NCBI GenBank assembly: GCA_017478485.1
Contig: JAFVDI010000036.1
Location: 2,747 to 34,746, forward strand
DNA length: 32,000 nt
Origin: Clostridiales bacterium
Lineage (GTDB): Bacteria > Bacillota > Clostridia > Saccharofermentanales > Saccharofermentanaceae
Reading direction: 5' to 3'
Both the position numbers and the translations under genes were made by a program. The notes beneath the pieces are model-generated. The model was not told the DNA's origin. It made no database searches and saw only the letters and a list, made by a program, of their open reading frames with translations. Shown piece by piece: positions 7,901 to 32,000 of the stretch (position 1 is its first letter; each line of letters starts with the position of its first letter).

Positions 7901-9502
7901 TCAAGCCGTGCAGGGTTCACTTTTGAGATCTATTCAGGTTCAACCCTGTTCTGCACCGGTGTTTCCGAAGCAGATGGCCGTGTCAGATGGACTTATAAGA
8001 TCGCTGATTACTACAGCACGAATAAGGATCCTGAGCATGGTGCGCTTACAACCCTTCTTACAAACACCTCTGCATATCAGATCGAATTGCCGAGCAATGC
8101 ACAATTCCAGATCCGTGAGACTTTCGAGACTGAAGGTCTTAAGTCTATGTGGAAGATCCCCGAAGGATGGAGTAACGGCGGTATGTATTACTACAAGAAC
8201 TTCACAAGTGGAAATATGTTCCATGCTACTTCTGACAGTGTAACAAACAAGCCCGCATTTAAGAGTTACAGACTGACAAAGGAACTCAAAGCGTCTGATG
8301 ACACACTGAACAAAGCTGGTTTCGTCTTTGCTGTAGCTGATGAGAACGATAAAGTCTATGCAAACGGCGTATCCGATGAGAACGGTAATGTTCAGTGGAC
8401 ATACACATCTGAAGGTGCTTTATCAGGTATCCCGGGTGCTTCTGTAGGCGGCAGGACTGAAAAGCTCCTGCTTAGACCTAACTATGCTGACGGAACTCCG
8501 ATCAAATACCAGGTAAGAGAGCTCATTCCCGGAACACTCCAGGTTCGTGGTATCCCCGAAGGCTGGACTGACGGCGGTGAGTATTTCTACAAGGCCATTG
8601 ATACTGCCGAAGATGTTATCAAGGATTCCGTTTTGAACTATGTCCCGGATATCAGGACTAAGGCAACAACCGAAGTCGGTAAGACTGTTGTGTACTCCAC
8701 CCAGGCAACCATTAAAGATACAGTTTCTTATAGAAATCTCGTACCTGGCAAGACATACACCATGAGCGGAAAGCTTATCGTTAAATCGACCGGCAAAGAA
8801 GCCAAGGACGAAAACGGTAACGCTATCGTTTCAAGCACAGAGTTCACGCCTGAAACTTCAGACGGCACTGTTGAAGTAACATTCACTTTCAACAGCACGC
8901 TGCTTCAGGGCGAAAAGCTTGTTGTCTTTGAGTCACTTACCTACAACAAAGTAGAGTATGCGGTCCATGCCGACATCAATGATGAAGGCCAGACAGTCTA
9001 TGTTCCGAAGGTTGGCACGACAGCAACTATCAAGGGCAAGAAGTCCATATTCCTTGCTTCAACCGAAGTCAGGAACATAACGATCACTGATAAGATCGCA
9101 TATAAGGGCCTTGAACCCGGCAGGAAGTACCGTGCTGAGGCAACGCTCTACAAGAAGAACGGTGCTCAGCTCATGAGGGACGGAAAGCCCGTCACCGCAA
9201 CACTCGAGTTCACTCCCGAGAATTCTTCCGGAACAGTGGAAGTCAAGATCACATTCTCTTCCAAGGGACTTTCCGAAGGCGACAAGATCGTCGTGTTCGA
9301 GAAAGTGTTCGATGTAGAGACCAATATCCTTATCGGCGTTCATGAGGACTTGAAGGATAAGAACCAGACAGTCACTATCCACTTCATGCCTCTGACAGGC
9401 GAGATCTCTCCGACTTACGTTAAGTTCGGTGTAGCTCTCGCTTCCTTGTCTGCTCTTGTCATCGCTCTGATGGCAAGACGCAAAAAGAAACTTTCGACAT
9501 AA
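4961..9502 (+). CDS. large wall-anchored multidomain surface protein: S/T/E/P-rich stalk, subtilisin-like S8 domain, NlpC/P60-like domain, Cna-B/SpaA-type Ig folds, two VaFE (Thr-Gln ester-bond type) repeats, and an LPXTG-like sorting signal
   Basis: Signal peptide MKFSKMICAFAVASLL. S8 triad context VIIDTGV (D261), NGHGT (H284), ASTSEASATFVG (S416). NlpC/P60 context LDCIGFV (C510) and GDIIMYGSTTHWVHAAIYAG. FGTYRIQEATAPDGYYLND is a Cna-B-like motif. KLVVFESL...HADINDEGQTV and KIVVFEKV...HEDLKDKNQTV are the two VaFE repeats. C-terminal MPLTG (9386-9400) is followed by a hydrophobic helix and RRKKK. Confidence 0.9.
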   Translation: MKFSKMICAFAVASLLMLQNVAPMVPVIADTTETTVETEATEETKHHEETAKPKETTRQTESSETSETTKASEKPVETAVPSETTEPSDETKPSETTESKETTEPSVSAITAETTAPTEKTEPSETTVPSETSESSEPSETTSETTTVETPKIVKAKSADEYIKLVAALPDGDKLIVATKDDLSALKPDAGVYFDGIYTLWFKTGSEYGAAVKYAASHRYGYTEDGVVGLCGTADYSAYAKYAIKTASACSSGKTRIVIIDTGVNGADEAYSVIGSDVKDKNGHGTFMADLIKESTDKAYIISVKAVGDNGKGTVSDVYNALQYAADQKPDIILMAISIKDNPDEYVALKSLIEETASKTTVIASAGNNNADASKYLPAGSDGVITIGAVKNDFYKTATSNYGDAVDYYAVAASTSEASATFVGKYIAKDDSGVVVSYAGSEDGVEYVGDDIFFGIDSDFTDNTKKILGGDDLKMSASVFHQRVLQYAKDICDDNRYQYSLDGGTYNLDCIGFVNKVYYLALGKPAFKSGTSYYEAKYAYKSSSKTYRARIFNGNTAPSCGAWINYAGIRTKPSASSKSKKCTTLSAAAKHINKYAVPGDIIMYGSTTHWVHAAIYAGSANSGKSYYEYAAHNKSLGISRIIKTETTFSAPKSDDSDSRISYVLVVRVTGTSTTGLKFVKKCIGDQDLLGECYSFEGTTYGIYTDEACTTPYSTMPTIEFDEAGETDSMIPTISNYPLTVYLKETKAGPGYLVDDSVYKLNLASTSAGTVTTVEGDGEAKLTLSSGIFTVTLYDIPTFDPLTIRLRKTGVNHASAPMNKATFRIRYYDADYPYDPAVFTPDDFDNNETPEDDFYITISNPDQLRDLSLKDLAGYGSVTVSGDNSSLKAIYDAQLSTMFFPFGTYRIQEATAPDGYYLNDSVYRIKLFMNNDRDADIEMRNEKTGKLLTEFTIDNEPGVDIAVPEINGPAYFSLEKRVTDDSSRAGFTFEIYSGSTLFCTGVSEADGRVRWTYKIADYYSTNKDPEHGALTTLLTNTSAYQIELPSNAQFQIRETFETEGLKSMWKIPEGWSNGGMYYYKNFTSGNMFHATSDSVTNKPAFKSYRLTKELKASDDTLNKAGFVFAVADENDKVYANGVSDENGNVQWTYTSEGALSGIPGASVGGRTEKLLLRPNYADGTPIKYQVRELIPGTLQVRGIPEGWTDGGEYFYKAIDTAEDVIKDSVLNYVPDIRTKATTEVGKTVVYSTQATIKDTVSYRNLVPGKTYTMSGKLIVKSTGKEAKDENGNAIVSSTEFTPETSDGTVEVTFTFNSTLLQGEKLVVFESLTYNKVEYAVHADINDEGQTVYVPKVGTTATIKGKKSIFLASTEVRNITITDKIAYKGLEPGRKYRAEATLYKKNGAQLMRDGKPVTATLEFTPENSSGTVEVKITFSSKGLSEGDKIVVFEKVFDVETNILIGVHEDLKDKNQTVTIHFMPLTGEISPTYVKFGVALASLSALVIALMARRKKKLST

Positions 9503-9583: not shown

Positions 9584-10312
9584 ATGAAATATGGCAAAGC
9601 ATTAAGGATCCTGCTCCAAACGATACTTATCGCTGCTTTCCTGATCGGCATTGCCCTGGTGGGCATTTACCTGATAAAAAGCTTCGTTCGAAAAAGTGTG
9701 TCAAACGGCGCAAAGATCGCTATTGAAAATGTGATAAACAACGGTGGAGGCGATGTAACTTACGATGTTCCGGACTCTGACTTCTATTCAGTCGATGGTG
9801 AAATGGGAGAAGAAGACATTTCCCCTTCTGATCTCGTGTATCAGATGAAAACACTCTCATCTACATACAAAAAACTGAAGCTTATCGGAATACTTGAGAT
9901 CCCCTGCATAAAGGTAAAAGAACCAATATGGGACTCCTGCTCTAAAACCGCATTGCGCTACGGTGTGGGGAGGTTCCCCGACACGTGCAATATCGGCGAG
10001 GCAGGTAATTGCACCATCTTCGGACACAGGATGAAGAACAAAACCATCTTTTGGCAGCTCCAGAAGCTTGAAAAGAAGATAGGCGAAGAAGTCATCGTTA
10101 CGACAACAGACGGCGTGAAGCACAAATACACGATAGTCAGTTCCACTTATGTCAAAGGTTCTGCCGTCGATCCGTACCTGACTGCAGATTTGTTCAGCAC
10201 AGAGCATTTGTGCCTTGCTACATGCGGCTACGGCAGGGATCCGTTTAACAAGAAGATCTTTTGGCCAAAGGCTACGGAATTCATCGTGATTTGTGTGCCT
10301 GTAAATACTTAA
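9584..10312 (+). CDS. sortase-family transpeptidase
   Basis: N-terminal TM helix, GNCTIFGHRM (active-site His context) and HLCLATCGY (TLxTC-type Cys). It sits immediately downstream of the protein carrying the sorting signal. Confidence 0.85.
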   Translation: MKYGKALRILLQTILIAAFLIGIALVGIYLIKSFVRKSVSNGAKIAIENVINNGGGDVTYDVPDSDFYSVDGEMGEEDISPSDLVYQMKTLSSTYKKLKLIGILEIPCIKVKEPIWDSCSKTALRYGVGRFPDTCNIGEAGNCTIFGHRMKNKTIFWQLQKLEKKIGEEVIVTTTDGVKHKYTIVSSTYVKGSAVDPYLTADLFSTEHLCLATCGYGRDPFNKKIFWPKATEFIVICVPVNT

Positions 10313-20094: not shown

Positions 20095-20484
20095 ATGGAA
20101 ATAAACATAAACAAAGACATCAGAGAATATACCGAAGGCGTTTTCTTCGGACTTAACATCCGCCAGCTGATCTGCTCCGGTTGTGCTATTGCTTCTGCCG
20201 TTGGGATCTACTTCGGCATGCGGGAAAAGATATCCCAGGATGCAATTACTTACCTCTGTATAGCCGCTGCTCTGCCTTTTGCTGCGATCGGCTTTATCAA
20301 GTACAACGGCATGCCAATGGAGAAGATCTTCGTGGCATGGTTCAAGGATTGCTTCCTCTGCCCCAGAAAGCTTAATTGCAGGGCCAACAACATCTATAAG
20401 GAAGCGCTTAAGGATTATTTCGATGCAAAAGAAAAGGAGGCTATGAATGCTCAAGAGCATAATGACACTGCTGAAGCAGGATAA
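20095..20484 (+). CDS. PrgI-family (VirB3-like) membrane protein
   Basis: The N-terminus NKDIREYTEGVFFGLNIRQLICSG plus two TM helices is typical of PrgI. It overlaps the virB4 start by 38 nt. Confidence 0.8.
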   Translation: MEININKDIREYTEGVFFGLNIRQLICSGCAIASAVGIYFGMREKISQDAITYLCIAAALPFAAIGFIKYNGMPMEKIFVAWFKDCFLCPRKLNCRANNIYKEALKDYFDAKEKEAMNAQEHNDTAEAG

Positions 20485-22801
20485 GGAGGCTTTCAAGGTC
20501 CCAAGAAGGGTTCAGGACCTCGTTCCAATTAAACGGATCTGGCCTGACGGAATCTTTCAGGTAGGCACGAACAAGTTCGCCAAAACCTGGAAGTTTTCGG
20601 ATATCAACTATCTGGTGGCAAGTGAAGGAGATAAAGAGAACATGTTCCTGCTCTATTCCGACGTTCTCAATTCCTTTGACAGTGCTGCTACGACCAAGAT
20701 CACGGTAAACAACCACAGGCTCAACAAGAAGGACTTCGAGAACTCGATCCTCATGCCGATGAAGCATGACGGCCTTGACGATTACCGTCAGGAGTATAAC
20801 GACATGCTCCTGGAAAAGGCTACCGGTGCTAACGGCATCACTCAGGAGAAGTATATAACCGTGTCCATCAACAAAAGAAGCGTTGAGGATGCGCGAATCT
20901 ACTTCGCCAGGACCGGAGCTGACCTTCAGATGCGTTTTGCTTCTTTAGGCAGCAGGCTTGAAGAACTGGATGCTCTGGAAAAACTTCGTATCCTTCACGA
21001 CTTCTACCGTCAGGGCGATGAGACCACATTCGAGTTCGATATGGCCAAGAGAGCCAAGCTCGGTCATGACTTCCGTGACTATATATGTCCGGATACGATC
21101 GAACGCGGCACGGACTATATCAAGCTCGGTGAGAAATATGTCAGAGTACTGTTTCTCAAGGACTACGGCAACTATATCAGCGATGACACCATTGCCGAGC
21201 TTACCGACATGAACAGAAACCTGATGCTTTCAATTGATGTTCTCTCCGTCCCCACAGATGAAGCGATCCGTGAGGTCGAGAACAAGCTATTAGGCGTTGA
21301 GACCAACATCACCAACTGGCAGAGAAAGCAGAACCAGAACAATAACTTCTCAGCTGTTATCCCATACGATATGGAGTTGCAGCGTAACAAGACAAAGGAG
21401 TTCCTGGCTGACCTCACAACCCGTGACCAGCGAATGATGCTCTGCCTCATCACAATGGCGATCACATCTGAGAGCAAGGAACTGCTTGATCTCGATACCG
21501 AAAGTCTTCAGGCCGTCGCCAAAGGCAGACATTGCCAGATGGCGGTCCTCAAGTGGCAGCAGGCGGACGCGCTCAACATCGTCCTCCCCTTCGGAGTCAG
21601 GAAGATAGACTGTTTCAGGACCCTTAACACGGAATCCCTGGCAGTATTCCTTCCCTTCAAAACGCAGGAAATCATGGACAAAGGCGGGATCTACTACGGC
21701 GAGAACGCTATTTCCCATAACCTTATCATGTGCAACAAGGAGAACCTCTTAAACCAGTCCGCCTTCCTTTTGGGCGTTCCCGGTTCGGGCAAGTCTTTCT
21801 CGGCTAAGGAGCTCATCACCTTCCTTATGCTCAATACGGATGACGACATCCTTATCTGCGATCCTGAGGGCGAGTACGCGCCTCTTGTTGAAGCAATGGG
21901 CCCTGAAATGGGCTCTGTCATTAGGGTTTCGGCCGGCGGAAGAGACAGGCTCAATGCGATGTATATGGTTGACGGCTATGGTGAGAACGACCCTATCGTA
22001 GTTAAGTCACAGTTCATCATGTCCCTTGTTGAGCAGATTGATAAAAAAGGCGTCGGGCCTCAACAGAAGTCCATAATCGACCGCTGTGCCGCAGCCGTTT
22101 ACCGGGATGCCGAGAAAACTAAGTCTTCAGGCGGTCCTGTCCCTACCCTCTGCACTTTCCGTGAGAAGCTCTTGGAACAGCCGGAGCGTGAAGCAAAGCA
22201 GATAGCGTTATCGCTTGAGCTCTTCACTACCGGATCTCTTGATATCTTCGGGCGTGAAAGCAATGTAGATATGGACAAGAGGGTCGTCGTTTTCGATATA
22301 CACGGCTTAGGCAGCCAGCTTAAGCCCACGGGACTTCTTGTCATAACGGACACTATGCTTAACCGAGTAACCCTTAATTGGAAGAAAGGTAAGCGTACAC
22401 ATGTCTTTATCGACGAGTTCCATGTCGTATTCGAAAACGAGTTCTCGGCACAGTTCTTTAACTCTGCCTGGAGACAGTTCCGTAAAAGGAACGCCTACCC
22501 TACCGCCATCACGCAGAATGTCGAGTATCTTTTGGACTCCATTCAGGCATCCACGATGCTTTCCAACTCGGAGTTCGTAATAATGCTCAACCAGGCAGCA
22601 TCGGACAGGGCCAAGCTTGCAAAGCTTTTGAACATCTCCGATATTCAGATGCGTTATATCACTAACGCGCCTGCAGGCACGGGTCTTATCAAGTACGGTG
22701 CCGCTCTCGTACCTTTCGTTAATAAGTTCAATAAGGATACGAAGCTCTACCACTTGATGACTACAAAGCCATCAGATAACGGAAAGTTTGCAAGCGGTTA
22801 A
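20447..22801 (+). CDS. virB4: VirB4-family conjugal transfer ATPase
   Basis: Walker A LLGVPGSGKS and Walker B HVFIDEFH. 784 aa. RBS GGAGG 6 nt upstream. Confidence 0.93.
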   Translation: MLKSIMTLLKQDKEAFKVPRRVQDLVPIKRIWPDGIFQVGTNKFAKTWKFSDINYLVASEGDKENMFLLYSDVLNSFDSAATTKITVNNHRLNKKDFENSILMPMKHDGLDDYRQEYNDMLLEKATGANGITQEKYITVSINKRSVEDARIYFARTGADLQMRFASLGSRLEELDALEKLRILHDFYRQGDETTFEFDMAKRAKLGHDFRDYICPDTIERGTDYIKLGEKYVRVLFLKDYGNYISDDTIAELTDMNRNLMLSIDVLSVPTDEAIREVENKLLGVETNITNWQRKQNQNNNFSAVIPYDMELQRNKTKEFLADLTTRDQRMMLCLITMAITSESKELLDLDTESLQAVAKGRHCQMAVLKWQQADALNIVLPFGVRKIDCFRTLNTESLAVFLPFKTQEIMDKGGIYYGENAISHNLIMCNKENLLNQSAFLLGVPGSGKSFSAKELITFLMLNTDDDILICDPEGEYAPLVEAMGPEMGSVIRVSAGGRDRLNAMYMVDGYGENDPIVVKSQFIMSLVEQIDKKGVGPQQKSIIDRCAAAVYRDAEKTKSSGGPVPTLCTFREKLLEQPEREAKQIALSLELFTTGSLDIFGRESNVDMDKRVVVFDIHGLGSQLKPTGLLVITDTMLNRVTLNWKKGKRTHVFIDEFHVVFENEFSAQFFNSAWRQFRKRNAYPTAITQNVEYLLDSIQASTMLSNSEFVIMLNQAASDRAKLAKLLNISDIQMRYITNAPAGTGLIKYGAALVPFVNKFNKDTKLYHLMTTKPSDNGKFASG

Positions 22802-22915
22802 TACCTTCTTAATTCCATTCCATGCCTTGCATGGTAGTATAAGTTAAGAACTTCGACGTACCATGTACCCTACCTTTCAAATATCCTCTTATTGGTATGT
22901 CACATCACCCCCTAA

Positions 22916-22945
22916 CCCCTTGTCACAAGTTGACAAGGGGTTTTT
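22916..22945 (+). terminator. strong rho-independent terminator after virB4
   Basis: CCCCTTGTCA (22916-22925), loop CAAGT, TGACAAGGGG (22931-22940), then TTTTT (22941-22945). Confidence 0.85.
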
Positions 22946-22967
22946 ACATGAGCACGGCAAGTTTTCG

Positions 22968-22996
22968 TTGATTTGTTTTGTTCAAAAACATATACT
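22968..22996 (+). promoter_or_regulatory. sigma-A type promoter for the PLD-ATPase cassette
   Basis: TTGATT (22968-22973), 17-nt spacer, TATACT (22991-22996). It ends about 32 nt upstream of the ATG at 23029. Confidence 0.55.
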
Positions 22997-23028
22997 TTTA
23001 TTTATTGAACTATTTGACAGGAGGCGTT

Positions 23029-25071
23029 ATGGAAAACAGTCAAGTATCCATATTTGATTTGTCTGGAACTGTAAAAGAGAAGAGTTTACAGGCGGTTTTA
23101 TGCAAATATGAAGAAATCTACGACACGAACTTTGAAGAATTATTTACTGGCTTTGATGACATCAAGGTTTTAACCTTCTCATATGGTATGGGTTTTATTA
23201 ACAAGACCTTAAAACTGTTTAGGACAGCGGAAATTATTCTCGGGTCGGAGTTCCGTGTTAAATATGATATCAAGGAAGTCATGGCCGCCCAAGAAGATGA
23301 CGCCCCATTTATGACTTTTCAGGCTTCATGTCTAAGAGGAATAAGGCGTAACAAGTATCTTGTTGATAGGATTCTTAATGATGAAGTCTCCGTTTATCTG
23401 GCAAAAGAAATTATTGCTCATGAAAAGTTGTATATCCTTACAGCCGAGAACGGATCCACTAGAGTAATTTGCGGCTCGGCAAACTTTTCGGATAAAGCTT
23501 TTGAAGGCGGAAGTCAAAGAGAAAGCATTCTTGTGTTCAATAATGATCCCGGTGCATATGAATGGGCTATGAATGAATTCGACATGGTAAAGGATATGAG
23601 CACACAAGAAATAATCAAAAGTGCCATATACTACAGTGAAACCGGTCTTCCAAAAGATGAAAAAGATGAAATCAAGGAAATACCAATAGTTGCCGAAGCC
23701 ATTGCCAAAGAAGCCGGAATCATTCTTGAATCCGAAAGTGTTGTCTCTGATGATGAATACCAGTTTGCAGTAGATGTAAGCAACTTCAAGAATAGAATTA
23801 AAGGTGTTGTGAATGCGGTCGCAAAGAAAGACGCGATAGGTAAGGTTCTGATAACACCAATTAAAACTAATGATCTTATAAGATCATTCCGTAAAAAGGT
23901 TGTTAAGGAGGCTGAAATCCGAAAAGTACACCCGGAGTTTTCTGTAGATCTTTTGAATCATAAAGCGGTACTTAACGACAAAGAATTCAATCTGGATCCA
24001 TCTCAAGAAATGGTAAAGGCGGATATTGAGGCTTTAGACAGGTTCTTTTCAGGATATGACAGATTTCTTGGAAATGTCGAAAATACAAAGAATCAGTTTT
24101 TTCTTCTGATGAATTATATGTTTTTGACTCCCTTTGTCGGAAAGGTCCGTAACACAGCATATAGGCATAAGTATGCTTCTATCTACTACCCTGTTTTCGC
24201 CGTTCTTGTTGGAGACAAAAACTCTGGAAAATCCTCTTTTGTTAAGGTTATCCAAAAGTTTATGTTCTTAAAGGATCTGCAGTCATTCACAGGAGAACAC
24301 TGGACTAAGACAACAGTACGCGGACTTATGCAGAATGTGTCCGAAATACCGATTTTAATCGATGATATCAGCAGAACAAGGTTTAAGGAAAATGCTGATG
24401 AGATCATTAAAGAGGATGACAATATAAATCAATCGGGTATTACGACCATCCCTTCTTTTGTTCTGACATCAAACGACATCACTACAAGTATTGAGCCGGC
24501 TCTAAAAAAACGAATGCTATATATAACTTCCGATTTGAAGTTGGATAATGTAAATGCGGCACACATGCACAAACTTGTTCATGACAATATCGAAAATCTG
24601 AACGGTTCATTCTACTGTAAGTACTTGAGTAAGATGATTGACAGAGTTAATGATTTGCTTGAATTGATCAAATCAGACAAAGCAGAAGACGAGAACTGGC
24701 ATCCTGATCTCTTTAAGATTTCATCCGAAACAATTTGCGAAATCGTAAGCGAAGCCTGTGGTACAACCCCGAAATACATGAGAAAAGTCACTTTTGAAGA
24801 TTATTTCGGTGTAGATACTGCCATGACACGCGATATCAAAGCAGAGATCATTACAAACTACCAGCACAACAAAAGAGCTTTTGTTATTGACCGTAAACGC
24901 AACAAGTTGGTCTATACTCCAGGTGAAAAACAATATGAAGCAAGACGATATGCCGATGCCCTTCCCGAATTTCTCGAGGCAAAAGTGCAAAATAACTATA
25001 TACTAATGGAGTTGGATAAAGCAGAAGAATTCTTTGGAATTAAGTTCAAGAGAGGTTTTCGGTTTAGATAA
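23029..25071 (+). CDS. fusion protein: N-terminal single-HKD phospholipase-D-family nuclease domain plus C-terminal SF3 (D5/P4-type) P-loop NTPase (680 aa)
   Basis: ATG 23029 after AGGAGG. HKD motif H131-E-K...GSAN152 (AHEKLYILTAENGSTRVICGSANFS, nt 23419-23484). Walker A GDKNSGKS (24211-24234), Walker B ILIDD (D445/D446), motif C FVLTSN (N482), followed by ALKKRMLYI. Confidence 0.8.
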   Translation: MENSQVSIFDLSGTVKEKSLQAVLCKYEEIYDTNFEELFTGFDDIKVLTFSYGMGFINKTLKLFRTAEIILGSEFRVKYDIKEVMAAQEDDAPFMTFQASCLRGIRRNKYLVDRILNDEVSVYLAKEIIAHEKLYILTAENGSTRVICGSANFSDKAFEGGSQRESILVFNNDPGAYEWAMNEFDMVKDMSTQEIIKSAIYYSETGLPKDEKDEIKEIPIVAEAIAKEAGIILESESVVSDDEYQFAVDVSNFKNRIKGVVNAVAKKDAIGKVLITPIKTNDLIRSFRKKVVKEAEIRKVHPEFSVDLLNHKAVLNDKEFNLDPSQEMVKADIEALDRFFSGYDRFLGNVENTKNQFFLLMNYMFLTPFVGKVRNTAYRHKYASIYYPVFAVLVGDKNSGKSSFVKVIQKFMFLKDLQSFTGEHWTKTTVRGLMQNVSEIPILIDDISRTRFKENADEIIKEDDNINQSGITTIPSFVLTSNDITTSIEPALKKRMLYITSDLKLDNVNAAHMHKLVHDNIENLNGSFYCKYLSKMIDRVNDLLELIKSDKAEDENWHPDLFKISSETICEIVSEACGTTPKYMRKVTFEDYFGVDTAMTRDIKAEIITNYQHNKRAFVIDRKRNKLVYTPGEKQYEARRYADALPEFLEAKVQNNYILMELDKAEEFFGIKFKRGFRFR

Positions 25072-25674
25072 ATGATTGGTTACGCAAAAATAAGACCAAA
25101 TGATGAAAAGGAATCTGTGTCGGCGCTTTTTCAGCCCTATCGCTGCGAAAAAATCATAATTGACGACTCACACAATCCTAAAGCCGAGGATAGCATTTGG
25201 CAAAGATTAAAACAGGAAATCTTCTCGTCGGATGATCGTGATTTGATAGTCGATTCATTGTTTAGTCTTGGAAAAACCGGTCGTGAAATCTCCAAAGAAC
25301 TGGAGTGGGCATATTCTAACAATATAAAATTGTATATCATCACCGTCCCTTCAACTTTTGAGAACCAACCCTTTGCCAATAAACTGCTTGTTGAGTTGTA
25401 TAGGGATAAAGCCTCTTTAGAGCGTAAAAATGTTGCAGTAAGGCAAGCCGAGGGTCAAAGAAGCGCTACGGAAGCAAATGTTAGATTTGGACGTCCAACC
25501 ACACCATATCCTGCTAATTGGGAGAAAGATTATGCTGCATGGCGCAATAAAGAATTGACAACAAATGACTTTATGGAAAGGTCCAAACTCAAAAAAGGTA
25601 CATTTTATAACCTGATAAAGCGTTATAAAAATGAACTTAGTACCCAGAATCAAGACACAAAAGAATTAGTTTAA
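25072..25674 (+). CDS. serine-recombinase (resolvase/invertase) fold protein lacking the catalytic residues, with a C-terminal HTH
   Basis: The start abuts the upstream stop (TAA 25069-25071, ATG 25072). MIGYAKIRPNDE replaces GYARVSTxxQ, and LFSLGK replaces LDRLGR. The E-helix (ERKNVAVRQAEGQR...VRFGRP) and HTH (GTFYNLIKRYK) are retained. Confidence 0.75.
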   Translation: MIGYAKIRPNDEKESVSALFQPYRCEKIIIDDSHNPKAEDSIWQRLKQEIFSSDDRDLIVDSLFSLGKTGREISKELEWAYSNNIKLYIITVPSTFENQPFANKLLVELYRDKASLERKNVAVRQAEGQRSATEANVRFGRPTTPYPANWEKDYAAWRNKELTTNDFMERSKLKKGTFYNLIKRYKNELSTQNQDTKELV

Positions 25675-25696
25675 ATCACACAAAATGTTACCTAAG

Positions 25697-25724
25697 GCCC
25701 TCGGGATTGACCCGGGGGCTTTCT
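25697..25724 (+). terminator. rho-independent terminator closing the two-gene cassette
   Basis: GCCCTCGGG (25697-25705), loop ATTGA, CCCGGGGGC (25711-25719) with one G-U pair, then TTTCT. Confidence 0.7.
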
Positions 25725-25770
25725 CATATGCTTGTTTTCAAGCCAAAACACAGCAAAGGAGTTAAATGAA

Positions 25771-27420
25771 ATGCCACAAATCAATAAAGTGGAACGCGAC
25801 CACAATATCAGGCAGGTATCGCGTTTGGATGACATAAAACCTGCTACAGAGAAATCAATAACAAAAGTTGTCCCGATTATTGATCAAAAATCGGGACAAT
25901 CTGATCTTACGGCAACTATGGATGCCGCAAGGAGAACCGGTATATCCGCCATAAGGCAGGCAAGGTCACTCTCAGGCAGTTCAGATAAAACCGAAGATCA
26001 GGAAGCGATAGACAAGCTTGAAGCCTCCGCCCGTAACGCTTCCAGAGAATCCGCGATTGCTGCCAAAGAGTCTCTCAGAAGACAGATAAAAAGAAAAAAG
26101 CCGGATATCAAGACGAGTGACCGATCGATCCATAAAGCTGACCGCATTAGAAAAAGCTCAATTGAAGCTTCGCAAGCAATCGTCAAAAGCGCGACAGAAG
26201 TAGCAAAGCAGGCTGCTATTGCTTCTCATAAGGCTGTTTCAGTGAGAAGGACCGAGCAAATGGCTAAGAAGTCCGCTGAATGGGTCAAAAGGATCGTCAG
26301 GGGCATAATCGAAAGCACCAAACAGCTCTTCAGTACATTGGGCGCCGCCGCTGTGCCTCTTATGCTGATACTTGTCCTTGCAGGCATGGTCGGCGGTATC
26401 GTCGCATCCTCTTTCGGCATTTTCTTTGTCGGTAATCAGTCTGGCAATAAAACAAGATCTCTTCAGGATGTCATTCTAAGTATCAACTCGGAATACAACA
26501 ATAAGATCGAAAGCATAAAAAAGAAAGTCTCTCATGATGAGCTCACTACAGAAGGTTATCAGGCACCCTGGTCTGATGTTCTCTCAGTCTATGCCGTCTA
26601 TGTCACGACAAAGACTGAAGATGCGACAGATGTGGTTCATATCACGGACGCCAATGTAAATGTACTTCGAGACATATTCTGGAAGATGAACTCAGTGACT
26701 TACACAACCGAAAAGGTTACCGAAAAGAAAAAGGTCCCGGTGCTAGACGAGAAAGGCCAACAAAAGAAAGATGCAGACGGAAACCCAGTCTATACCGAAA
26801 AGAAGATAACCAAGACCATTCTTCATATCAAGACAACTCACAAAACAGCAGAACAGCAAGCCGCTGCCCTCTCCTTCAATGTAAAACAGCTAGCTGAGCT
26901 AAAAGAACTCCTAGATGTTAAGAACGCTTCACTATGGGCTCAGATCCTCAAAGGCATTGGTTCAGGATCGAATGAACTGGTAAACCTCGCTTTATCGCAG
27001 CTTGGCAACAAAGGCGGCGAAAAGTACTGGAGATGGGCCGGGAGCAGCAAGCGAATTGCCTGGTGCGCCCTTTTCGTATCTTGGTGTGCTGATAAGACCG
27101 GGCTTAGAGCTTCCGGTCAGATCCCTTACTTCTCTTTTGTCGGTGACGGTGTCCACTGGTTTAAGACAAAAGGAAAATGGATCAAAGGCTCTGATGTCAA
27201 CAGTACCAACTATGACAAGCTCATCCGTCCGGGCATGCTCATCTTCTTCGACTGGCTTGAAGACGGCAAGCGAGATGGTCACGGCGATCATGTGGGAATT
27301 GTCACTAAGGTCGCAAATGGTCGATTTTATACGGTTGAAGGTAACAAGGACGATAAAGTCGCAGAAGGTTCTTACCCTGTTGGCAGCAAAAGTATACTTG
27401 GATTTGGAATAGTTGGATAA
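25771..27420 (+). CDS. conjugation-associated cell-wall hydrolase with a C-terminal CHAP domain
   Basis: ATG 25771 lies 9 nt after AAAGGAG. TM segment AAAVPLMLILVLAGMVGGIV. CHAP motifs IAWCALFVSWC (Cys) and GHGDHVGIV...TVEGN (His). Confidence 0.88.
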   Translation: MPQINKVERDHNIRQVSRLDDIKPATEKSITKVVPIIDQKSGQSDLTATMDAARRTGISAIRQARSLSGSSDKTEDQEAIDKLEASARNASRESAIAAKESLRRQIKRKKPDIKTSDRSIHKADRIRKSSIEASQAIVKSATEVAKQAAIASHKAVSVRRTEQMAKKSAEWVKRIVRGIIESTKQLFSTLGAAAVPLMLILVLAGMVGGIVASSFGIFFVGNQSGNKTRSLQDVILSINSEYNNKIESIKKKVSHDELTTEGYQAPWSDVLSVYAVYVTTKTEDATDVVHITDANVNVLRDIFWKMNSVTYTTEKVTEKKKVPVLDEKGQQKKDADGNPVYTEKKITKTILHIKTTHKTAEQQAAALSFNVKQLAELKELLDVKNASLWAQILKGIGSGSNELVNLALSQLGNKGGEKYWRWAGSSKRIAWCALFVSWCADKTGLRASGQIPYFSFVGDGVHWFKTKGKWIKGSDVNSTNYDKLIRPGMLIFFDWLEDGKRDGHGDHVGIVTKVANGRFYTVEGNKDDKVAEGSYPVGSKSILGFGIVG

Positions 27421-27447
27421 CGAGTCACTAAAAGTTTACAAACAGCA

Positions 27448-27484
27448 CTCAGACTGCCTATTTGGATAGTTTGAGAACTTTTTC
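27448..27484 (+). terminator. probable terminator after the hydrolase gene
   Basis: CTCAGACT (27448-27455) pairs with AGTTTGAG (27468-27475) with one G-U pair and a 12-nt loop, followed by AACTTTTT. Confidence 0.45.
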
Positions 27485-27597: not shown

Positions 27598-27656
27598 CAA
27601 GAAGATAGTAGAATTTGTTTAGTAATAAAAACAAATTTGGCCAAGGAGGAATAAAA

Positions 27657-29396
27657 ATGTCTAAACTAGTAGTTGATCAGAAAACGGTTTATGAATTGTT
27701 TGGCAACAAAAATGCATACTTCTTGATTCCCGATTATCAACGTCCCTATGCGTGGGATGAAGTTGAATGTCAAACCTTATGGAATGATATTTTCTCCTTT
27801 GCAATACCAGAAAACGACTATTCAAAATTCAATAATGATGACGAATATTTCTTAGGTCCAATCGTTACATTTGACAATAATAATAAAAAAGAAGTAATTG
27901 ATGGCCAACAAAGATTAACTACTCTGTTGCTACTTCTACGCGCTTTTTACTGTTCATTTGGTACAATGGCAGACGAAAATTCTCTTGCTACAAAACAAAT
28001 GATAGAAGCCTGCATCTGGAAGACGAACGAGTTTAACAAGCCCGATATGAATGTTTTGAAGATAGATTCTGAAGTAGCTTCAGATGAGCACAAGGAAGAA
28101 TTCCTCTCCATTTTAAAAACTGGAATCGTTGAGGACAAGATGAAGAGCAATTATGCTGTTAACTATCGGTTCTTTCAGAAGAAGATTGAGGAGTTCCTTC
28201 ACACATACCCAACATATTATCCCTATTTGCCGATACGAATAATGAAGAATTGCATCTTACTTCCGATTGAAGCAGAATCTCAGGATACTGCTCTGCGTAT
28301 CTTCTCAACCCTTAACGACAGAGGAAAGCCATTGTCTGATGCTGATATTTTTAAAGCCCAGTTGTATAAACACTATTCTCTTAAGGGAGAGAAGGATACT
28401 TTCATCAAACGTTGGAAGGCGTTGGAATCTAAGTGTAATGAAATCTATCATCCTATATCTGGTACTCCTATGGACGAGGCATTTACTCGTTATATGTATT
28501 ATGAGAGAGCCAAGATGGGAATAAAATCTTCTACCACAGAAGCTTTGAGAAAGTTCTATGAAAAAGACAGTTATGCTCTGTTAAAGAATGATTTAACATT
28601 CGACAACATTGTGGATCTTACAGATTTCTGGGAGTCTGTTTCGAAACAGGACGAAGAGAGATTCTCCGATGATGTGCTGAAAAAGCTGTTTATCTTGAAT
28701 TATGCTCCAAATGGTATGTGGACATACTTTGTTTCAGTCTATTACTTAAGCAATAAAGACAGAGGCGGATTGCTTGAAGAAGGGGCATTCCTTAGTTTTC
28801 TCGAGAAAACCATTGCTTTCATATGGACATATGCGGTAACCAATCCAGGCGTTAACTCTCTAAGAACCCCGGTATACGCAGAAATGATAAGTGTTGTAAA
28901 ACACGATAATGTTGATTTTGCGGATTATCTGTTTGATGAGAAAACAACGCGAACATCCTTTGATAACTATGTTTTTACAAACAACAGAGGTATTACAAAG
29001 TCAATGTTAACATGGTGGGCTTATCATAATAAGGATCAGAGTCTGATCCCTCTTGATACTACATTGGAAATAGAACATATTTATGCCAAAAATCGTTTTG
29101 AAAATGAGAAGTCTTTAAGCAATGCTGCTGTTATTGAAAAACTTGGTAATAAGTCTCTTCTGGAAAAGAGAATCAACATTCGTGCATCAGATTATAGATT
29201 CAACGATAAGAAAAAATATTATCAGGGGTTTGAAGGTTCCAGAGGATACAAGCCAGGAACTTGTATTTCTGATTTAAAATGTCTTGCTAACGCAAAGGAG
29301 AATTTTGAGGAAAAAGATATCAACAATAGAACTAAAGAGATCTTAGATGCTTTTTTTGAGTATTTAAAGAGTAATAGTTTGATTGCTTTAGCATAA
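27657..29396 (+). CDS. GmrSD-like DUF262/DUF1524 protein (putative modification-dependent type IV restriction enzyme)
   Basis: ATG 27657 lies 7 nt after AAGGAGG. DUF262 motifs IPDYQRPYAW and DGQQRLTT (27900-27923). C-terminal His-Me finger-like LEIEHIYAKN ... LGNKSLLEKRIN (H474 at 29076-29078). Confidence 0.85.
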   Translation: MSKLVVDQKTVYELFGNKNAYFLIPDYQRPYAWDEVECQTLWNDIFSFAIPENDYSKFNNDDEYFLGPIVTFDNNNKKEVIDGQQRLTTLLLLLRAFYCSFGTMADENSLATKQMIEACIWKTNEFNKPDMNVLKIDSEVASDEHKEEFLSILKTGIVEDKMKSNYAVNYRFFQKKIEEFLHTYPTYYPYLPIRIMKNCILLPIEAESQDTALRIFSTLNDRGKPLSDADIFKAQLYKHYSLKGEKDTFIKRWKALESKCNEIYHPISGTPMDEAFTRYMYYERAKMGIKSSTTEALRKFYEKDSYALLKNDLTFDNIVDLTDFWESVSKQDEERFSDDVLKKLFILNYAPNGMWTYFVSVYYLSNKDRGGLLEEGAFLSFLEKTIAFIWTYAVTNPGVNSLRTPVYAEMISVVKHDNVDFADYLFDEKTTRTSFDNYVFTNNRGITKSMLTWWAYHNKDQSLIPLDTTLEIEHIYAKNRFENEKSLSNAAVIEKLGNKSLLEKRINIRASDYRFNDKKKYYQGFEGSRGYKPGTCISDLKCLANAKENFEEKDINNRTKEILDAFFEYLKSNSLIALA

Positions 29397-29412
29397 TAAT
29401 ATGGTGAAAACA

Positions 29413-32000
29413 ATGGGTAAGTTATCAGAATATGAAGTTGAAGAGATGTTCATAAACAAGCTGGAAAGCATTGGTTATGATTACATCGAATTAAATAATT
29501 ATACAGATGTGCTTAACAACTTTAGGTCGCAGCTGTGTAAGCTAAATGCTACAAAACTCATTGAGAAGAAAGGCATCGCCGAGTTGTCTCAAAAGGAGTT
29601 TGAGCGTCTTCTGATATATGTAGACAATAAAACTGTTTATGAATCAGCTAAGATTCTAAGAGACAAATATATCCTTCAGCTTGATAATGGTGAAACTGTT
29701 TATTTGGAGTTTTTTACACCTGATTCTACTCGTAATACTTATCAAGTTGCTCATCAGATAACAATGGATCCTGAACACAAGGATGATGTTGTCTATAAGA
29801 ACAGATATGACGTCACAGTATTCGTTAACGGTTTACCATTGGTACAGATAGAACTTAAAAGACCCGGCGTTGAGATTAACGAGGCGGTTAATCAGATTAA
29901 CAGATATCGCAAATTCTCTTTCAAAGGACTCTTTCATTATCTTCAATTATTTGTAGTATCGAATTCTGTCCAGACAAAATACTTCTGCAATGAAAATGAG
30001 ATGTTAAATGGTCAGCGAAGACCTATTCTCAAGAGCTTAGTATTCTTCTGGACAGACGAAAACAATGACAGAATCAATGATCTATCTGATTTCACTTCGG
30101 ATTTCTTCAGGAAGACATTTCTTACCGATATTATTTTCAAATATATGGTAATTAAAACTACCGAAGATACATTGATGGTAATGCGACCATATCAAATTTA
30201 TGCAGTCCAAGCCGCAAAAAAGAGAGTGCTTGAGGTTAATAAAGACGGATTTATCTTCGCTTGTACTGGTTCAGGAAAAACACTAACATCTTTTAAGCTG
30301 GCACAGTTACTGAGAGATGAAAACGCGGTAGATAGAGTTATATTCCTCATTGACCGCAAAGACTTAGATGACCAGACCATAGATGAATATAATTCGTTTG
30401 AGAAGGATTGTGTTGATAGAACCACAAACACTTACGCTCTGATCAATCGTTTGCGCGACAAATCACAGAAACTAATTGTTACCACAATACAAAAGCTTGC
30501 CAAGGCATCAAATAACAGTAAGTTCGATGAATTGCTGGAAAGCATGCGTAATGACAAAGTCGTTTTTATCATTGATGAATGCCATAGATCTCAGTTCGGC
30601 AAGATGCATGCTGATATCGCTCGCCGCTTTGATAATGCCAACTATATCGGATTCACTGGTACACCTATTTTTAAGGAAAACAAAGGTAGCAATAATCAAA
30701 CAACAGCTGATCTCTTTTATGCCGGAGAAAATCTTGATTCGTGTCTGCATAAATATATGATCAAAAATGCAATAGCGGATGGAAATGTATTGAAATTTTC
30801 CGTCGAATACCAAAGATCAATTCTAGTTAAAAATGTTCAAGCAAAAGGTATTGATCCCGATAGGCTTGATGATCCTGAATACTGTCGGATACATAATGTG
30901 GATATAAATTCTTTGTATCATGACAAACAGAGAATAAGAAATATAGCTGAGCATATTTTTAAGAATCATCAGATACATGTTCATCCTCAAGGCGAGAGTG
31001 TATATACAGCCATGTTTGCTGTAGATCAAATACAAACGCTCGGAATGTATTATAAAGAGTTCAAACGACTTAATGATGAAGCTCCTGAAGATAAGAAACT
31101 CAGGATAGCGGCCATATTTACTTATCAAGCTAATGAAGATGTTGATGAAGATGAAGGTATGGATGAACACTCCCAAGAGTTATTAGACTCATGCATAGAT
31201 GATTACAACGACTTATTTGGAACATCATTCAGTACGGAAACTTTTGACTCATATCGAAAAGACATACAAAAACGCTTGAAACAAAAAGAACTTCCACAAG
31301 TAGATCTTTTGCTTGTAGTTAATATGTTCCTTACCGGGTTTGATGCTAAACCTTTAAATACGCTATATCTTGACAAAAACCTTATTTGGCACTCACTGCT
31401 TCAAGCATATAGCAGAACAAACCGTGTCGATAAAGCATCCAAACAGTTTGGACAAATCATCACATATCGTAATATAAAAAAGGCTCAGGACGATGCTCTA
31501 AAACTCTTCTCAGGTGACGGCAATCCGGATGAGTATCTTCTCAACAGTTATGAATACTATACAGAGGAGTGGAGAACAAAAACAGGCGAATTGATGAGGA
31601 TCGCACCGACAGCTTCGGAAGCTGGACATCTTCAATCAGAGGATGATATCAGAATGTTTGTTGTAGCTTTTAGAGCAGTTTCAAAAACACTCGCTATTTT
31701 GAAAACCTTCTCAAAGTTCGACTGGAAGGATCTTTCGATAGTACTTAGCGAAGATGAGTACGAAGCATATAAAAGTTGGTACTTATATTTCTACGACATC
31801 TTAAAGAAAGAACGTGAAACTGAAAAAGTTCCAGTCCCGGTTGATGTCGACTTTGACATTGAGCTGATAAGAACTGACAAGATCAACGTAGTTTATATCC
31901 TTAACCTTCTCAAAGAGGTCAATCGTAAGAATCCCGAAGAAATGCGACGTTCTGCAGATCTTATCCTTCGTGAAATAGAGCGTTCTGACAATGAAGCACT
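29413..32000 (+). CDS. hsdR: type I restriction enzyme R subunit (HsdR), 3' end truncated by the window edge
   Basis: I translated the frame by hand and it is open from 29413 (alternative start 29401) to the window end. N-terminal nuclease region RYDVTVFVNGLPLVQIELKRPG. Helicase motif I ACTGSGKT, motif II IIDECH (30574-30585), and also FLTGFDA and LLQAYSRTNR. Confidence 0.92.
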   Translation, partial: MGKLSEYEVEEMFINKLESIGYDYIELNNYTDVLNNFRSQLCKLNATKLIEKKGIAELSQKEFERLLIYVDNKTVYESAKILRDKYILQLDNGETVYLEFFTPDSTRNTYQVAHQITMDPEHKDDVVYKNRYDVTVFVNGLPLVQIELKRPGVEINEAVNQINRYRKFSFKGLFHYLQLFVVSNSVQTKYFCNENEMLNGQRRPILKSLVFFWTDENNDRINDLSDFTSDFFRKTFLTDIIFKYMVIKTTEDTLMVMRPYQIYAVQAAKKRVLEVNKDGFIFACTGSGKTLTSFKLAQLLRDENAVDRVIFLIDRKDLDDQTIDEYNSFEKDCVDRTTNTYALINRLRDKSQKLIVTTIQKLAKASNNSKFDELLESMRNDKVVFIIDECHRSQFGKMHADIARRFDNANYIGFTGTPIFKENKGSNNQTTADLFYAGENLDSCLHKYMIKNAIADGNVLKFSVEYQRSILVKNVQAKGIDPDRLDDPEYCRIHNVDINSLYHDKQRIRNIAEHIFKNHQIHVHPQGESVYTAMFAVDQIQTLGMYYKEFKRLNDEAPEDKKLRIAAIFTYQANEDVDEDEGMDEHSQELLDSCIDDYNDLFGTSFSTETFDSYRKDIQKRLKQKELPQVDLLLVVNMFLTGFDAKPLNTLYLDKNLIWHSLLQAYSRTNRVDKASKQFGQIITYRNIKKAQDDALKLFSGDGNPDEYLLNSYEYYTEEWRTKTGELMRIAPTASEAGHLQSEDDIRMFVVAFRAVSKTLAILKTFSKFDWKDLSIVLSEDEYEAYKSWYLYFYDILKKERETEKVPVPVDVDFDIELIRTDKINVVYILNLLKEVNRKNPEEMRRSADLILREIERSDNEA

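Follow-up and report, generated by a model that had tools for sequence, protein, structure and literature searches.

A PLD nuclease–SF3 helicase gene paired with a catalytically dead resolvase gene forms an accessory, putatively defensive cassette in a cargo slot of Clostridia conjugative elements

A 32,000-nucleotide (nt) stretch from a Clostridiales bacterium of the Saccharofermentanaceae (assembly GCA_017478485.1, contig JAFVDI010000036.1, positions 2,747 to 34,746), analyzed as a whole and called the window here, carries a conjugative element in which a two-gene cassette lies between virB4 and the gene for a CHAP hydrolase. Gene A (23029-25071, plus strand) encodes a 680-amino acid (aa) protein combining a phospholipase D (PLD) nuclease with a superfamily 3 (SF3) helicase, and gene B (25072-25674, plus strand) encodes a 200-aa catalytically dead small serine recombinase. 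We conclude that the A–B pair is a mobile, self-expressed two-gene cargo unit extending from 22.95 to 25.73 kb. Comparison with related elements strongly supports an accessory acquisition rather than a core transfer function, and we favor, at somewhat better than even confidence, the explanation that A–B is an autoregulated nuclease–NTPase (nucleoside triphosphatase) module against foreign DNA, that is, defense-type cargo.

A sequence-only reading of this region had proposed that the cassette was an accessory acquisition and that a synteny or BLASTN comparison should look for relatives with an empty site. We scanned GTDB genomes for VirB4 and obtained 80 related loci from rumen and gut Clostridia (e.g., Saccharofermentans, Ruminococcaceae, Oscillospiraceae, and Lachnospiraceae). 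Neither A nor B was present at any of these loci (0/80), which rules out A and B as a core transfer function. Five relatives whose VirB4 is 91 to 93% identical (L011, L013, L014, L015, and L017) have an empty junction, with 73 to 87 nt from the virB4 stop to the hydrolase ATG; blastn homology between the window and the empty-site relatives ended at 22801-22806 and restarted at 25742-25754. The proposed comparison thus delivered the relatives it sought, and the accessory status was borne out. The cassette is also AT-richer than its surroundings, as had been noticed from spot counts: its G+C content is 38.0%, whereas the backbone has 47.1% and the hydrolase gene 46.1%, a 9-point drop, and G+C falls likewise in the relative L005 (37.7% versus 45.7%).

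The junction between virB4 and the hydrolase gene exists in several other states. It measures 184 to 192 nt and holds a 110-nt element alone in L016 and L020; it holds an unrelated single gene of 126 to 137 aa in L012, L018, and L051; and it holds A and B in the window and L117-L122, in L005-L008, and in L091. The single junction genes of L012 (12422-12799), L018, and L051 share the N-terminal motif LYGYVRG and two flanking hairpins, and the L012 copy, the only one scanned, had no match in Pfam and none above threshold in NCBIfam. In distant relatives (VirB4 ∼60% identical), virB4 is directly followed by nothing, by an orphan N6/N4 DNA methyltransferase, or by an AAA_14/DUF4143 ATPase; cargo is present in L053, L054, L064, L076, L048, and L052, and DUF6075, sortase, and hydrolase genes come next. 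The orphan methyltransferases may be anti-restriction cargo. Since the junction occurs empty or with a small gene, A and B, a methyltransferase, or an ATPase, the position after virB4 is a recurrent cargo slot across the element family. The earlier expectation that virB4 and the hydrolase gene sit in one uninterrupted operon therefore held for the five close relatives with an empty junction, but not for the family at large, in which this slot recurs with other genes in it. No direct repeats or terminal inverted repeats were found flanking the cassette, and a transposition origin was rejected because there are no transposon-like ends or target duplications around it; the simplest idea is entry by recombination in the conserved flanks. 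A megablast of 20447-27420 against PLSDB plasmids gave no match.

Protein A has three parts: a single-HKD PLD nuclease domain (residues ∼35-190), an SF3 core (∼300-500), and a helical and winged-helix-like C terminus (∼505-670). It matched the Pfam families PLDc_2 (28.9 bits; cutoff 27) and RE_NgoFVII (24.2 bits; cutoff 23.8), gave a weak VapE-like P-loop match, and belongs by precomputed Pfam assignment to PF27394 ('Aq_aa27'). An exhaustive HMMER search returned 954 cluster representatives at 50% clustering, 267 of them at E ≤ 1e-30, and among the best 150 listed of the 954 most match near full length (∼650-700 aa). A word-indexed protein profile search for A returned nothing beyond four close homologs, a genome scan with patterns from the A alignment found no relatives, and A was absent from phage GenBank (tblastn) and from IMG/VR viral contigs at the sensitivity used. 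We assessed residue conservation in an alignment of 101 diverse family members. The PLD motif (HxK...GSxN...E) corresponds in A to H131-x-K133, G149-S150-A151-N152, and E165; K133 and N152 never vary, and each of H131, S150, and E165 is present in at least 85% of members. The SF3 motifs are Walker A (G395-x4-G400-K401-S), Walker B (D445-D446), the sensor N482, and the arginine finger K494-R495; K401, N482, and R495 are invariant, and G400 and D445 are invariant or nearly so. Family-wide conservation of both active sites rules out that A is a pseudogene or remnant.

An AlphaFold2 model of A built from the 101-sequence alignment (predicted local distance difference test score 85.8; predicted template modeling [TM] score 0.77) was compared with known structures. 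In Foldseek searches of the PDB, the N-terminal domain matched NgoAVII-R (4rct; E = 2.3e-5), SauUSI (7clg; E = 3.4e-5), and BfiI (2c1l; E = 4.6e-4). The remainder of the protein matched best Cch of the staphylococcal cassette chromosome mec (SCCmec) (5dgk; E = 6.5e-6; 402-537 aligned columns), with further matches to African swine fever virus PrimPol (AsfvPrimPol), D5, monkeypox virus E5, SV40 large T antigen (LTag), PriRep1, and NrS-1. TM-scores of these SF3 matches were low (0.25-0.35) because the alignment covers just part of each chain. Among viral models (BFVD), the best matches were DUF927 and primase-helicase proteins (E values down to 5e-8), and a profile of A searched against PDB sequences returned 5dgk at E = 0.004. 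The Pfam and Foldseek matches and the two retained active-site motifs agree with the PLD nuclease/SF3 ATPase assignment made previously from the letters alone. Judged from the model, A is a predicted fusion of a PLD nuclease of the restriction type with an SF3 helicase of the Cch/D5 type.

That the C-terminal two-thirds of A best matches replicative helicases (Cch 5dgk, AsfvPrimPol, D5/E5, PriRep1, NrS-1, and LTag) raises the possibility of a replication or maintenance module, in which A would be a self-loading SF3 helicase like Cch of SCCmec or Rep of the Staphylococcus aureus pathogenicity islands (SaPIs), its PLD domain would nick or process an origin, B would bind an origin or operator, and the element would replicate autonomously after excision. 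D5-type SF3 helicases are hallmarks of conjugative and mobile elements (PMC10853773), which also speaks for this explanation. We nevertheless regard it as unlikely. Protein A does share with the Cch/DUF927/D5 helicases of SCCmec, SaPIs, phages, and nucleocytoplasmic large DNA viruses the core, the collar helices, and the C-terminal winged helix, with Walker A, Walker B, the sensor Asn, and the Arg finger conserved. However, those helicases have primase or origin-binding N termini and a role in replication, whereas A has no primase or origin-binding domain; its N terminus is a PLD nuclease of the restriction type whose active site is invariant, and the module is dispensable cargo that very close relatives of the same backbone lack. 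Plasmids that carry A have other means of replication: those of Acetobacter and Komagataeibacter that were examined carry typed replicons of their own, the Arcobacter plasmid has its own replication-initiation and DnaB-like genes, and on these plasmids A is a lone gene among toxin–antitoxin (TA) or par genes. Iterons or repeats flanking A–B were not found.

The nearest architectural analogs of A are the ATP-dependent PLD restriction enzymes SauUSI and NgoAVII/CglI. SauUSI joins a PLD domain, an SF2 helicase, and a target-recognition domain in one chain, and NgoAVII/CglI consists of a PLD R-protein and an ATPase N-protein. The N-terminal single-HKD restriction-type PLD nuclease is common to A, the type IV enzyme SauUSI, NgoAVII/CglI, and BfiI; the coupling of the nuclease to an NTP-driven motor is common to A, SauUSI, and NgoAVII/CglI. 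Like SauUSI, A is a single chain, and it has a putative C-terminal DNA-binding domain. It differs from all of these in that its motor is SF3 (Cch/D5/DUF927-like) and not SF2, in that it is paired with a dead resolvase, and in having no sequence-level similarity to PLD restriction enzymes outside the PLD core. With an SF3 motor and no SRA-type or similar modification-reader domain detected by Pfam, A was rejected as a SauUSI-type type IV enzyme.

The ATG of gene B directly abuts the TAA of gene A. Protein B matched the Pfam family Resolvase (24.8 bits; cutoff 23.3), the PHROG family 'DNA invertase' (E = 3.6e-12; residues 58-197), and, in the PDB, Bin3 (2r0q; E = 8e-4) and Sin. Aligned with Sin/Bin3, B has IGYAKIRPNDE in place of IGYARVSSLDQ, which changes the Ser to Arg and the first Arg to Lys, and VDSLFSLGK in place of VESIDRLGR (DRLGR to FSLGK). 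The catalytic positions of B are K6, R8 (the Ser position), F63, S64, and K67, corresponding to R8, S10, D67, R68, and R71 of the gamma-delta resolvase. The catalytic Ser, Arg, and Asp-Arg are thus all replaced, in agreement with the earlier description of a dead recombinase. Among B orthologs the Ser position is occupied by R, S, K, N, Y, V, T, D, or G, a variability implying that there is no constraint there. Protein B shares with the small serine recombinases (Tn3/gamma-delta, Sin, Bin3, and Hin) the N-domain signature, the E-helix, the GRP arm, and the C-terminal helix-turn-helix, and differs from them in its replaced catalytic residues and in the unconserved Ser position. By these sequence features B is recombinase-derived but not a functional recombinase; it is predicted to be unable to recombine and, with its DNA-binding half kept, to bind DNA.

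A B-like gene follows A in 14 of 26 metagenome loci (L091-L097, L099, L100, L105, L107, L109, L114, and L115), even where A is just 26 to 39% identical, and also in L005-L009 and L123. Gene A occurs without B on Acetobacter, Komagataeibacter, Arcobacter, and Athalassotoga plasmids, in the high-G+C gut loci L101-L104, and in L111. B is therefore not required for A activity and is a lineage-specific partner outside the core chemistry of A. An Acetobacter "recombinase family protein" gene near a solo A was rejected as a B ortholog, since its catalytic site is intact and it lies 1.2 kb away. In L101-L104, a conserved ∼63-aa open reading frame (GKSWVAAGGRTITDEMVERWERELETGEF...) follows the solo A where a B-type gene would be, and it may be an alternative small partner of A.

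The cassette has its own promoter-like site, TTGATT (−35)-N17-TATACT (−10), at 22968-22996 on the plus strand, with 9 of 12 consensus matches; it had been called consensus-like, and it proved so. This region contains 24 such hexamers, no fewer than the 20.4 expected by chance, so the evidence for the promoter is its conservation in relatives. Its position and sequence are conserved ahead of homologous modules from four other genomic contexts: the form TTGayT-N17-TATACT with an invariant AAAAA-ATATACT is seen in the window, L005/L007, L009, and L010, and L092 keeps GTTCAAAAACATATACT upstream of A. Gene A itself starts at an ATG which, together with a GGAGG ribosome-binding site (RBS), agrees with the N termini of its homologs. 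An inverted repeat, GTTCAA-N19-TTGAAC, spans the −10 box at 22980-23010 and is a candidate operator for B; the TTGAAC downstream of the −10 box is invariant in 5 aligned promoters. Distant A+B promoters have longer inverted repeats, with 12-nt arms in L105 and 11-nt arms in L107, repeated around the −35/−10 boxes, and these arm lengths were reached by 0 of 300 shuffles. Their half-sites, TGTCTAAAAAT and GTCTATAAAT, presumably recall resolvase half-sites, a resemblance that we treat as a lead only. Tn3-family resolvases repress at res, and B resembles res-repressing resolvases in having a putative dimer site over its own promoter. By this analogy, B is most likely a dimeric autorepressor of the A–B operon acting at the putative operator 22980-23010; given the translational coupling, it may also be a physical partner of A.

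A tight, translationally coupled pair with a putative autoregulated promoter would also suit a TA-type addiction or stabilization module, in which A would be a toxic nuclease and B a labile repressor or antitoxin, so that loss of the element would derepress A and kill segregants. The module is small, self-contained, and carried on mobile elements, and its Acetobacteraceae plasmid homologs lie among type II TA loci. Yet A occurs alone in many lineages (plasmids L001-L004, as well as L101-L104 and L111) and therefore cannot be unconditionally toxic. The gene order places the effector first and the regulator second, the 680-aa motor-nuclease architecture is atypical of TA toxins, and no TA signature was found in PADLOC, Pfam, or NCBIfam. 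We accordingly hold addiction to be an improbable function for the pair.

Homologs of the module were found in several kinds of neighborhoods. The pair occupies the same virB4-hydrolase slot in L005-L008 and L091, where A is 76 to 77% identical, and in L117, a 125-kb contig with an identical module; the slot is followed by BREX after the hydrolase gene in L005/L006, and by GmrSD and a complete type I restriction-modification (R-M) system in L117. In L092, where A is 56% identical, the pair lies 3' of the hydrolase gene. The module also occurs in nonconjugative contexts (L009/L123, L093, L096, L099, and L105), as does the solo A of L111. The pair is directly downstream of a large serine recombinase gene in L093, with SoFic within 10 kb; between an N6-methyltransferase/HsdS block and a TniQ gene in L096; and, in L099, ahead of genes for a NACHT-pentapeptide protein, resolvases, and type I R-M. 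L111 has a solo A with GmrSD-like, McrB, McrC, and HNH genes downstream. After the pair, L009 carries a 207-aa gene and then type I R-M; L123 has the same three genes (the third 99% identical), and then Macro and LHH/SUKH genes. The third gene (L009:2780-3403 and L123:10600-11232; 207-210 aa, 99% identity) has no Pfam match and may be a third component in some module variants. On proteobacterial plasmids (Acetobacteraceae and Arcobacter), A sits beside type II TA clusters or parAB, and on the Athalassotoga plasmid, beside a helicase and a DNA methyltransferase. Matches among 90 neighbor proteins included SoFic and type I methyltransferase/specificity proteins. This pattern of occurrence looks like that expected of cargo riding defense islands.

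The contexts also bear on a role linked to conjugation itself, in establishment or competition. Here A–B would be expressed with or after the type IV secretion system genes, would be derepressed in a new recipient before B accumulates, and would degrade resident rivals or recipient DNA ends, or serve exclusion. The module lies inside or next to the transfer operon in the window, L005-L008, L091, and L092 (after the hydrolase gene), and a repressor-controlled promoter on a transferable element would predict an expression burst on entry. Conjugative plasmids are also known to carry PLD nucleases, for instance Nuc. On the other hand, many homologs are in nonconjugative contexts (L093, L096, L099, L105, L111, and L123), and a terminator-like hairpin (hairpin 1, described below) separates the module from the virB4 transcript. 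We consider this role quite unlikely.

The position after the hydrolase gene is a second cargo/defense hotspot. In the window, a GmrSD type IV restriction gene (27615-29396) directly follows the hydrolase gene in a low-G+C stretch (∼36%; 27615-29396 and 29400-32000), and backbone homology to relatives stops at ∼27420-27460. The same position holds GmrSD and type I R-M in L117, BREX in L005/L006, and A+B in L092. In SXT-type integrative and conjugative elements (ICEs), anti-phage systems sit in variable hotspots located between core genes (bioRxiv 10.1101/2020.12.16.423150). The present elements resemble the SXT/R391 ICE hotspots (e.g., hotspot 5, with anti-phage systems) in their conserved conjugation backbone, intergenic slots, and interchangeable cargo that is often defensive; they differ in that they form a Clostridia family of the mating-pair formation (MPF)-FA type and in that the slot is flanked by terminator-like hairpins.

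A defense function is plausible from the domain logic and the neighborhoods, and we infer from these the defense role, the mechanics of a hexamer with PLD dimers, and the action of B as a repressor. A PLD domain with a single HKD motif needs a second such domain to complete an active site, as is the case for Nuc, BfiI, and NgoAVII, so a ring of A subunits would offer paired nuclease sites. We propose that the SF3 module of A would oligomerize on DNA and drive ATP-dependent translocation or unwinding, that neighboring PLD domains would pair into complete active sites and cut DNA, and that this DNA would come from invading phages or rival elements. B would bind the inverted repeat over the −10 box, repress the A–B operon, and thereby keep a dangerous nuclease low. 

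Azaca and Mokosh, which combine a PLD nuclease and an NTPase, are validated anti-phage systems with NTPase-dependent DNA cleavage (bioRxiv 10.1101/2025.07.10.664194). The A–B module resembles Azaca (ZacABC) and Mokosh in its logic of a PLD nuclease and a P-loop NTPase, with a weak match of A to ZacB at the PLD level; it differs in that those systems use SF2 or SF1 helicases, as separate proteins or in other fusions. PADLOC v2 (DB) contained no model matching A or B, consistent with the earlier remark that the pair fits no named defense system, and B gave no hit. A search of the literature on "Aq_aa27", PLD+SF3 helicase defense, and inactive-resolvase partners found no description of the A–B pair. 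To our knowledge, neither an SF3 helicase as NTPase nor a recombinase-derived partner has been described for Azaca or Mokosh, and we know of no named defense system that uses an SF3 motor as its NTPase or contains the A family. The combination of a PLD nuclease, an SF3 helicase, and a dead resolvase is a variation on the nuclease–NTPase theme and not a new category.

Several points weigh against defense-type cargo controlled by B. The best PADLOC match of A, to ZacB, is at E = 6e-4 and 16.8 bits and covers residues 131-256, the PLD region. SF3 helicases of the type found in A (Cch, D5, DUF927, and primase-helicases) are classically replication proteins of mobile elements. The neighborhood evidence is anecdotal, comprising ∼10 independent contexts without a background control. 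The inverted repeat in the window, with its 6-nt arms, is not above chance, as 39% of shuffles match or exceed it, and B does not accompany A in Proteobacteria, in the high-G+C loci, or in L111. The cassettes of the window and L005 are about as diverged as their backbones, and the polarity of the change could be either gain here or loss in the relatives. With these points taken into account, we still lean toward an autoregulated module against foreign DNA. A more elaborate version, which we regard as a long shot, gives B a sensing role: beyond repressing, the dead resolvase would recognize res-like or dimer-site DNA when plasmids, transposons, or phages enter and would recruit or license a hexameric A to thread and shred it, with an expression burst on entry into a naive cell.

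The cassette had been described as insulated, and two terminator-like hairpins are indeed present. Hairpin 1 (22914-22945, plus strand) lies 3' of virB4 and has a perfect 12-bp stem (22914-22925/22931-22942), a 5-nt loop, and a U-run of UUUUU, two U of which are within the stem; its folding energy of −20.6 kcal/mol (z = −5.2) was matched by 0 of 200 shuffles. Hairpin 2 (25694-25722, plus strand), at the 3' end of the cassette, has a 12-bp stem with one G-U pair (arms 25694-25705/25711-25722) and an interrupted U-tract (UUUCUCAU); the 61-nt stretch that includes it and a small second hairpin folds at −26.9 kcal/mol (z = −4.2). A simple consensus terminator scan listed neither hairpin. Empty-site relatives have one GC hairpin and then TTTTTACATG before the hydrolase RBS, often with a second small hairpin too, and cargo-bearing sites have two large hairpins. 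Because empty sites already contain a GC hairpin, the terminator-like structure before the hydrolase RBS appears ancestral and native to the backbone, and just one of the two hairpins would have arrived with the cassette. Insulation in the earlier sense therefore stands for the presence of two hairpins but not for their common origin with the cargo. Likewise, read-through of a hairpin into the hydrolase gene would be the ancestral condition, and the question of how the hydrolase is expressed concerns the whole element family and not this insertion.

The hydrolase gene starts at ATG 25771 (MPQI..., a start common to all relatives) with the RBS AAAGGAG at 25755-25761. Its backbone 5' leader (25730-25761, plus strand) consists of a small hairpin, an A-rich spacer, and the RBS. 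The leader is conserved as a GC hairpin, TTTTTACATG, a second small hairpin, AAATA, and AAAGGAG, and this layout is common to the window, L013, L014, L015, L017, L018, L020, and L005. The small stem is GCTTG-tttt-CAAGC (25730-25743) in the window, GCTTT/AAAGC in L013, GCCCT/AGGGT in L015 and L017, GCCC/GGGC in L020, and GCCCG/CGGGT in L005, with compensatory changes at three positions among the relatives compared. The leader may be a cis-regulatory or processing element for hydrolase expression. Within the 5' end of the hydrolase gene, at 25868-25899, is a 19-nt near-perfect palindrome (TTGTCCCGATTATTGATCA/TGATCAAAAATCGGGACAA; 95% complementary).

On the other side of the cassette, between the virB4 stop and hairpin 1, is an intergenic element of ∼110 nt (22802-22913, plus strand), a backbone variant outside the cassette. 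It aligns with L005, L016, L020 (partly), L051, and L018, whether these carry cargo or none. It contains CCTACCTTTC, a CCTCCTTTC-like motif that is RBS-like on the minus strand. No conserved open reading frame was found in it, and an Rfam scan of 22600-25900 gave no match; it could be an antisense or 3' untranslated region RNA.

Every feature that the sequence-only reading had listed between virB4 and the hydrolase gene was recovered in place or a few bases away. Along the window, the element, which is of Firmicute type, carries first genes for ParA, ParB, a 1513-aa TQ-ester adhesin, a sortase, DUF5688, and a DUF3991-Toprim protein; next NikA/MobC, a relaxase, DUF3801, VirD4, TrbC-like, TrbL-like, and PrgI; and then VirB4 (20447-22801; TraG P-loop/DUF87/AAA_10 domains), the cassette, the CHAP hydrolase (25771-27420), and GmrSD (27615-29396). 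The 1513-aa surface protein (4961-9502) combines two T-Q ester-bond domains with a SpaA-like domain and gives a weak NlpC/P60 signal; the sortase gene (9584-10312) lies downstream. This protein probably serves the element as its mating adhesin.

These results give a large uncharacterized family (PF27394; ∼950 clusters at 50% identity) a testable hypothesis, and the locus offers a clean experimental entry: the module is naturally present or absent in near-identical backbones, has its own promoter, and comes with a dedicated recombinase-derived partner. Should the module prove defensive, it would extend the nuclease–NTPase paradigm to SF3 helicases and provide a case of a serine recombinase turned regulator or partner by domestication. 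Whatever its function, two slots for cargo, behind virB4 and behind the hydrolase gene, are now defined in a widespread family of conjugative elements from Clostridia of the rumen and gut. BREX, GmrSD, type I R-M, and methyltransferases move with these elements, which bears on gene flow and on phage and plasmid resistance in the gut microbiome.

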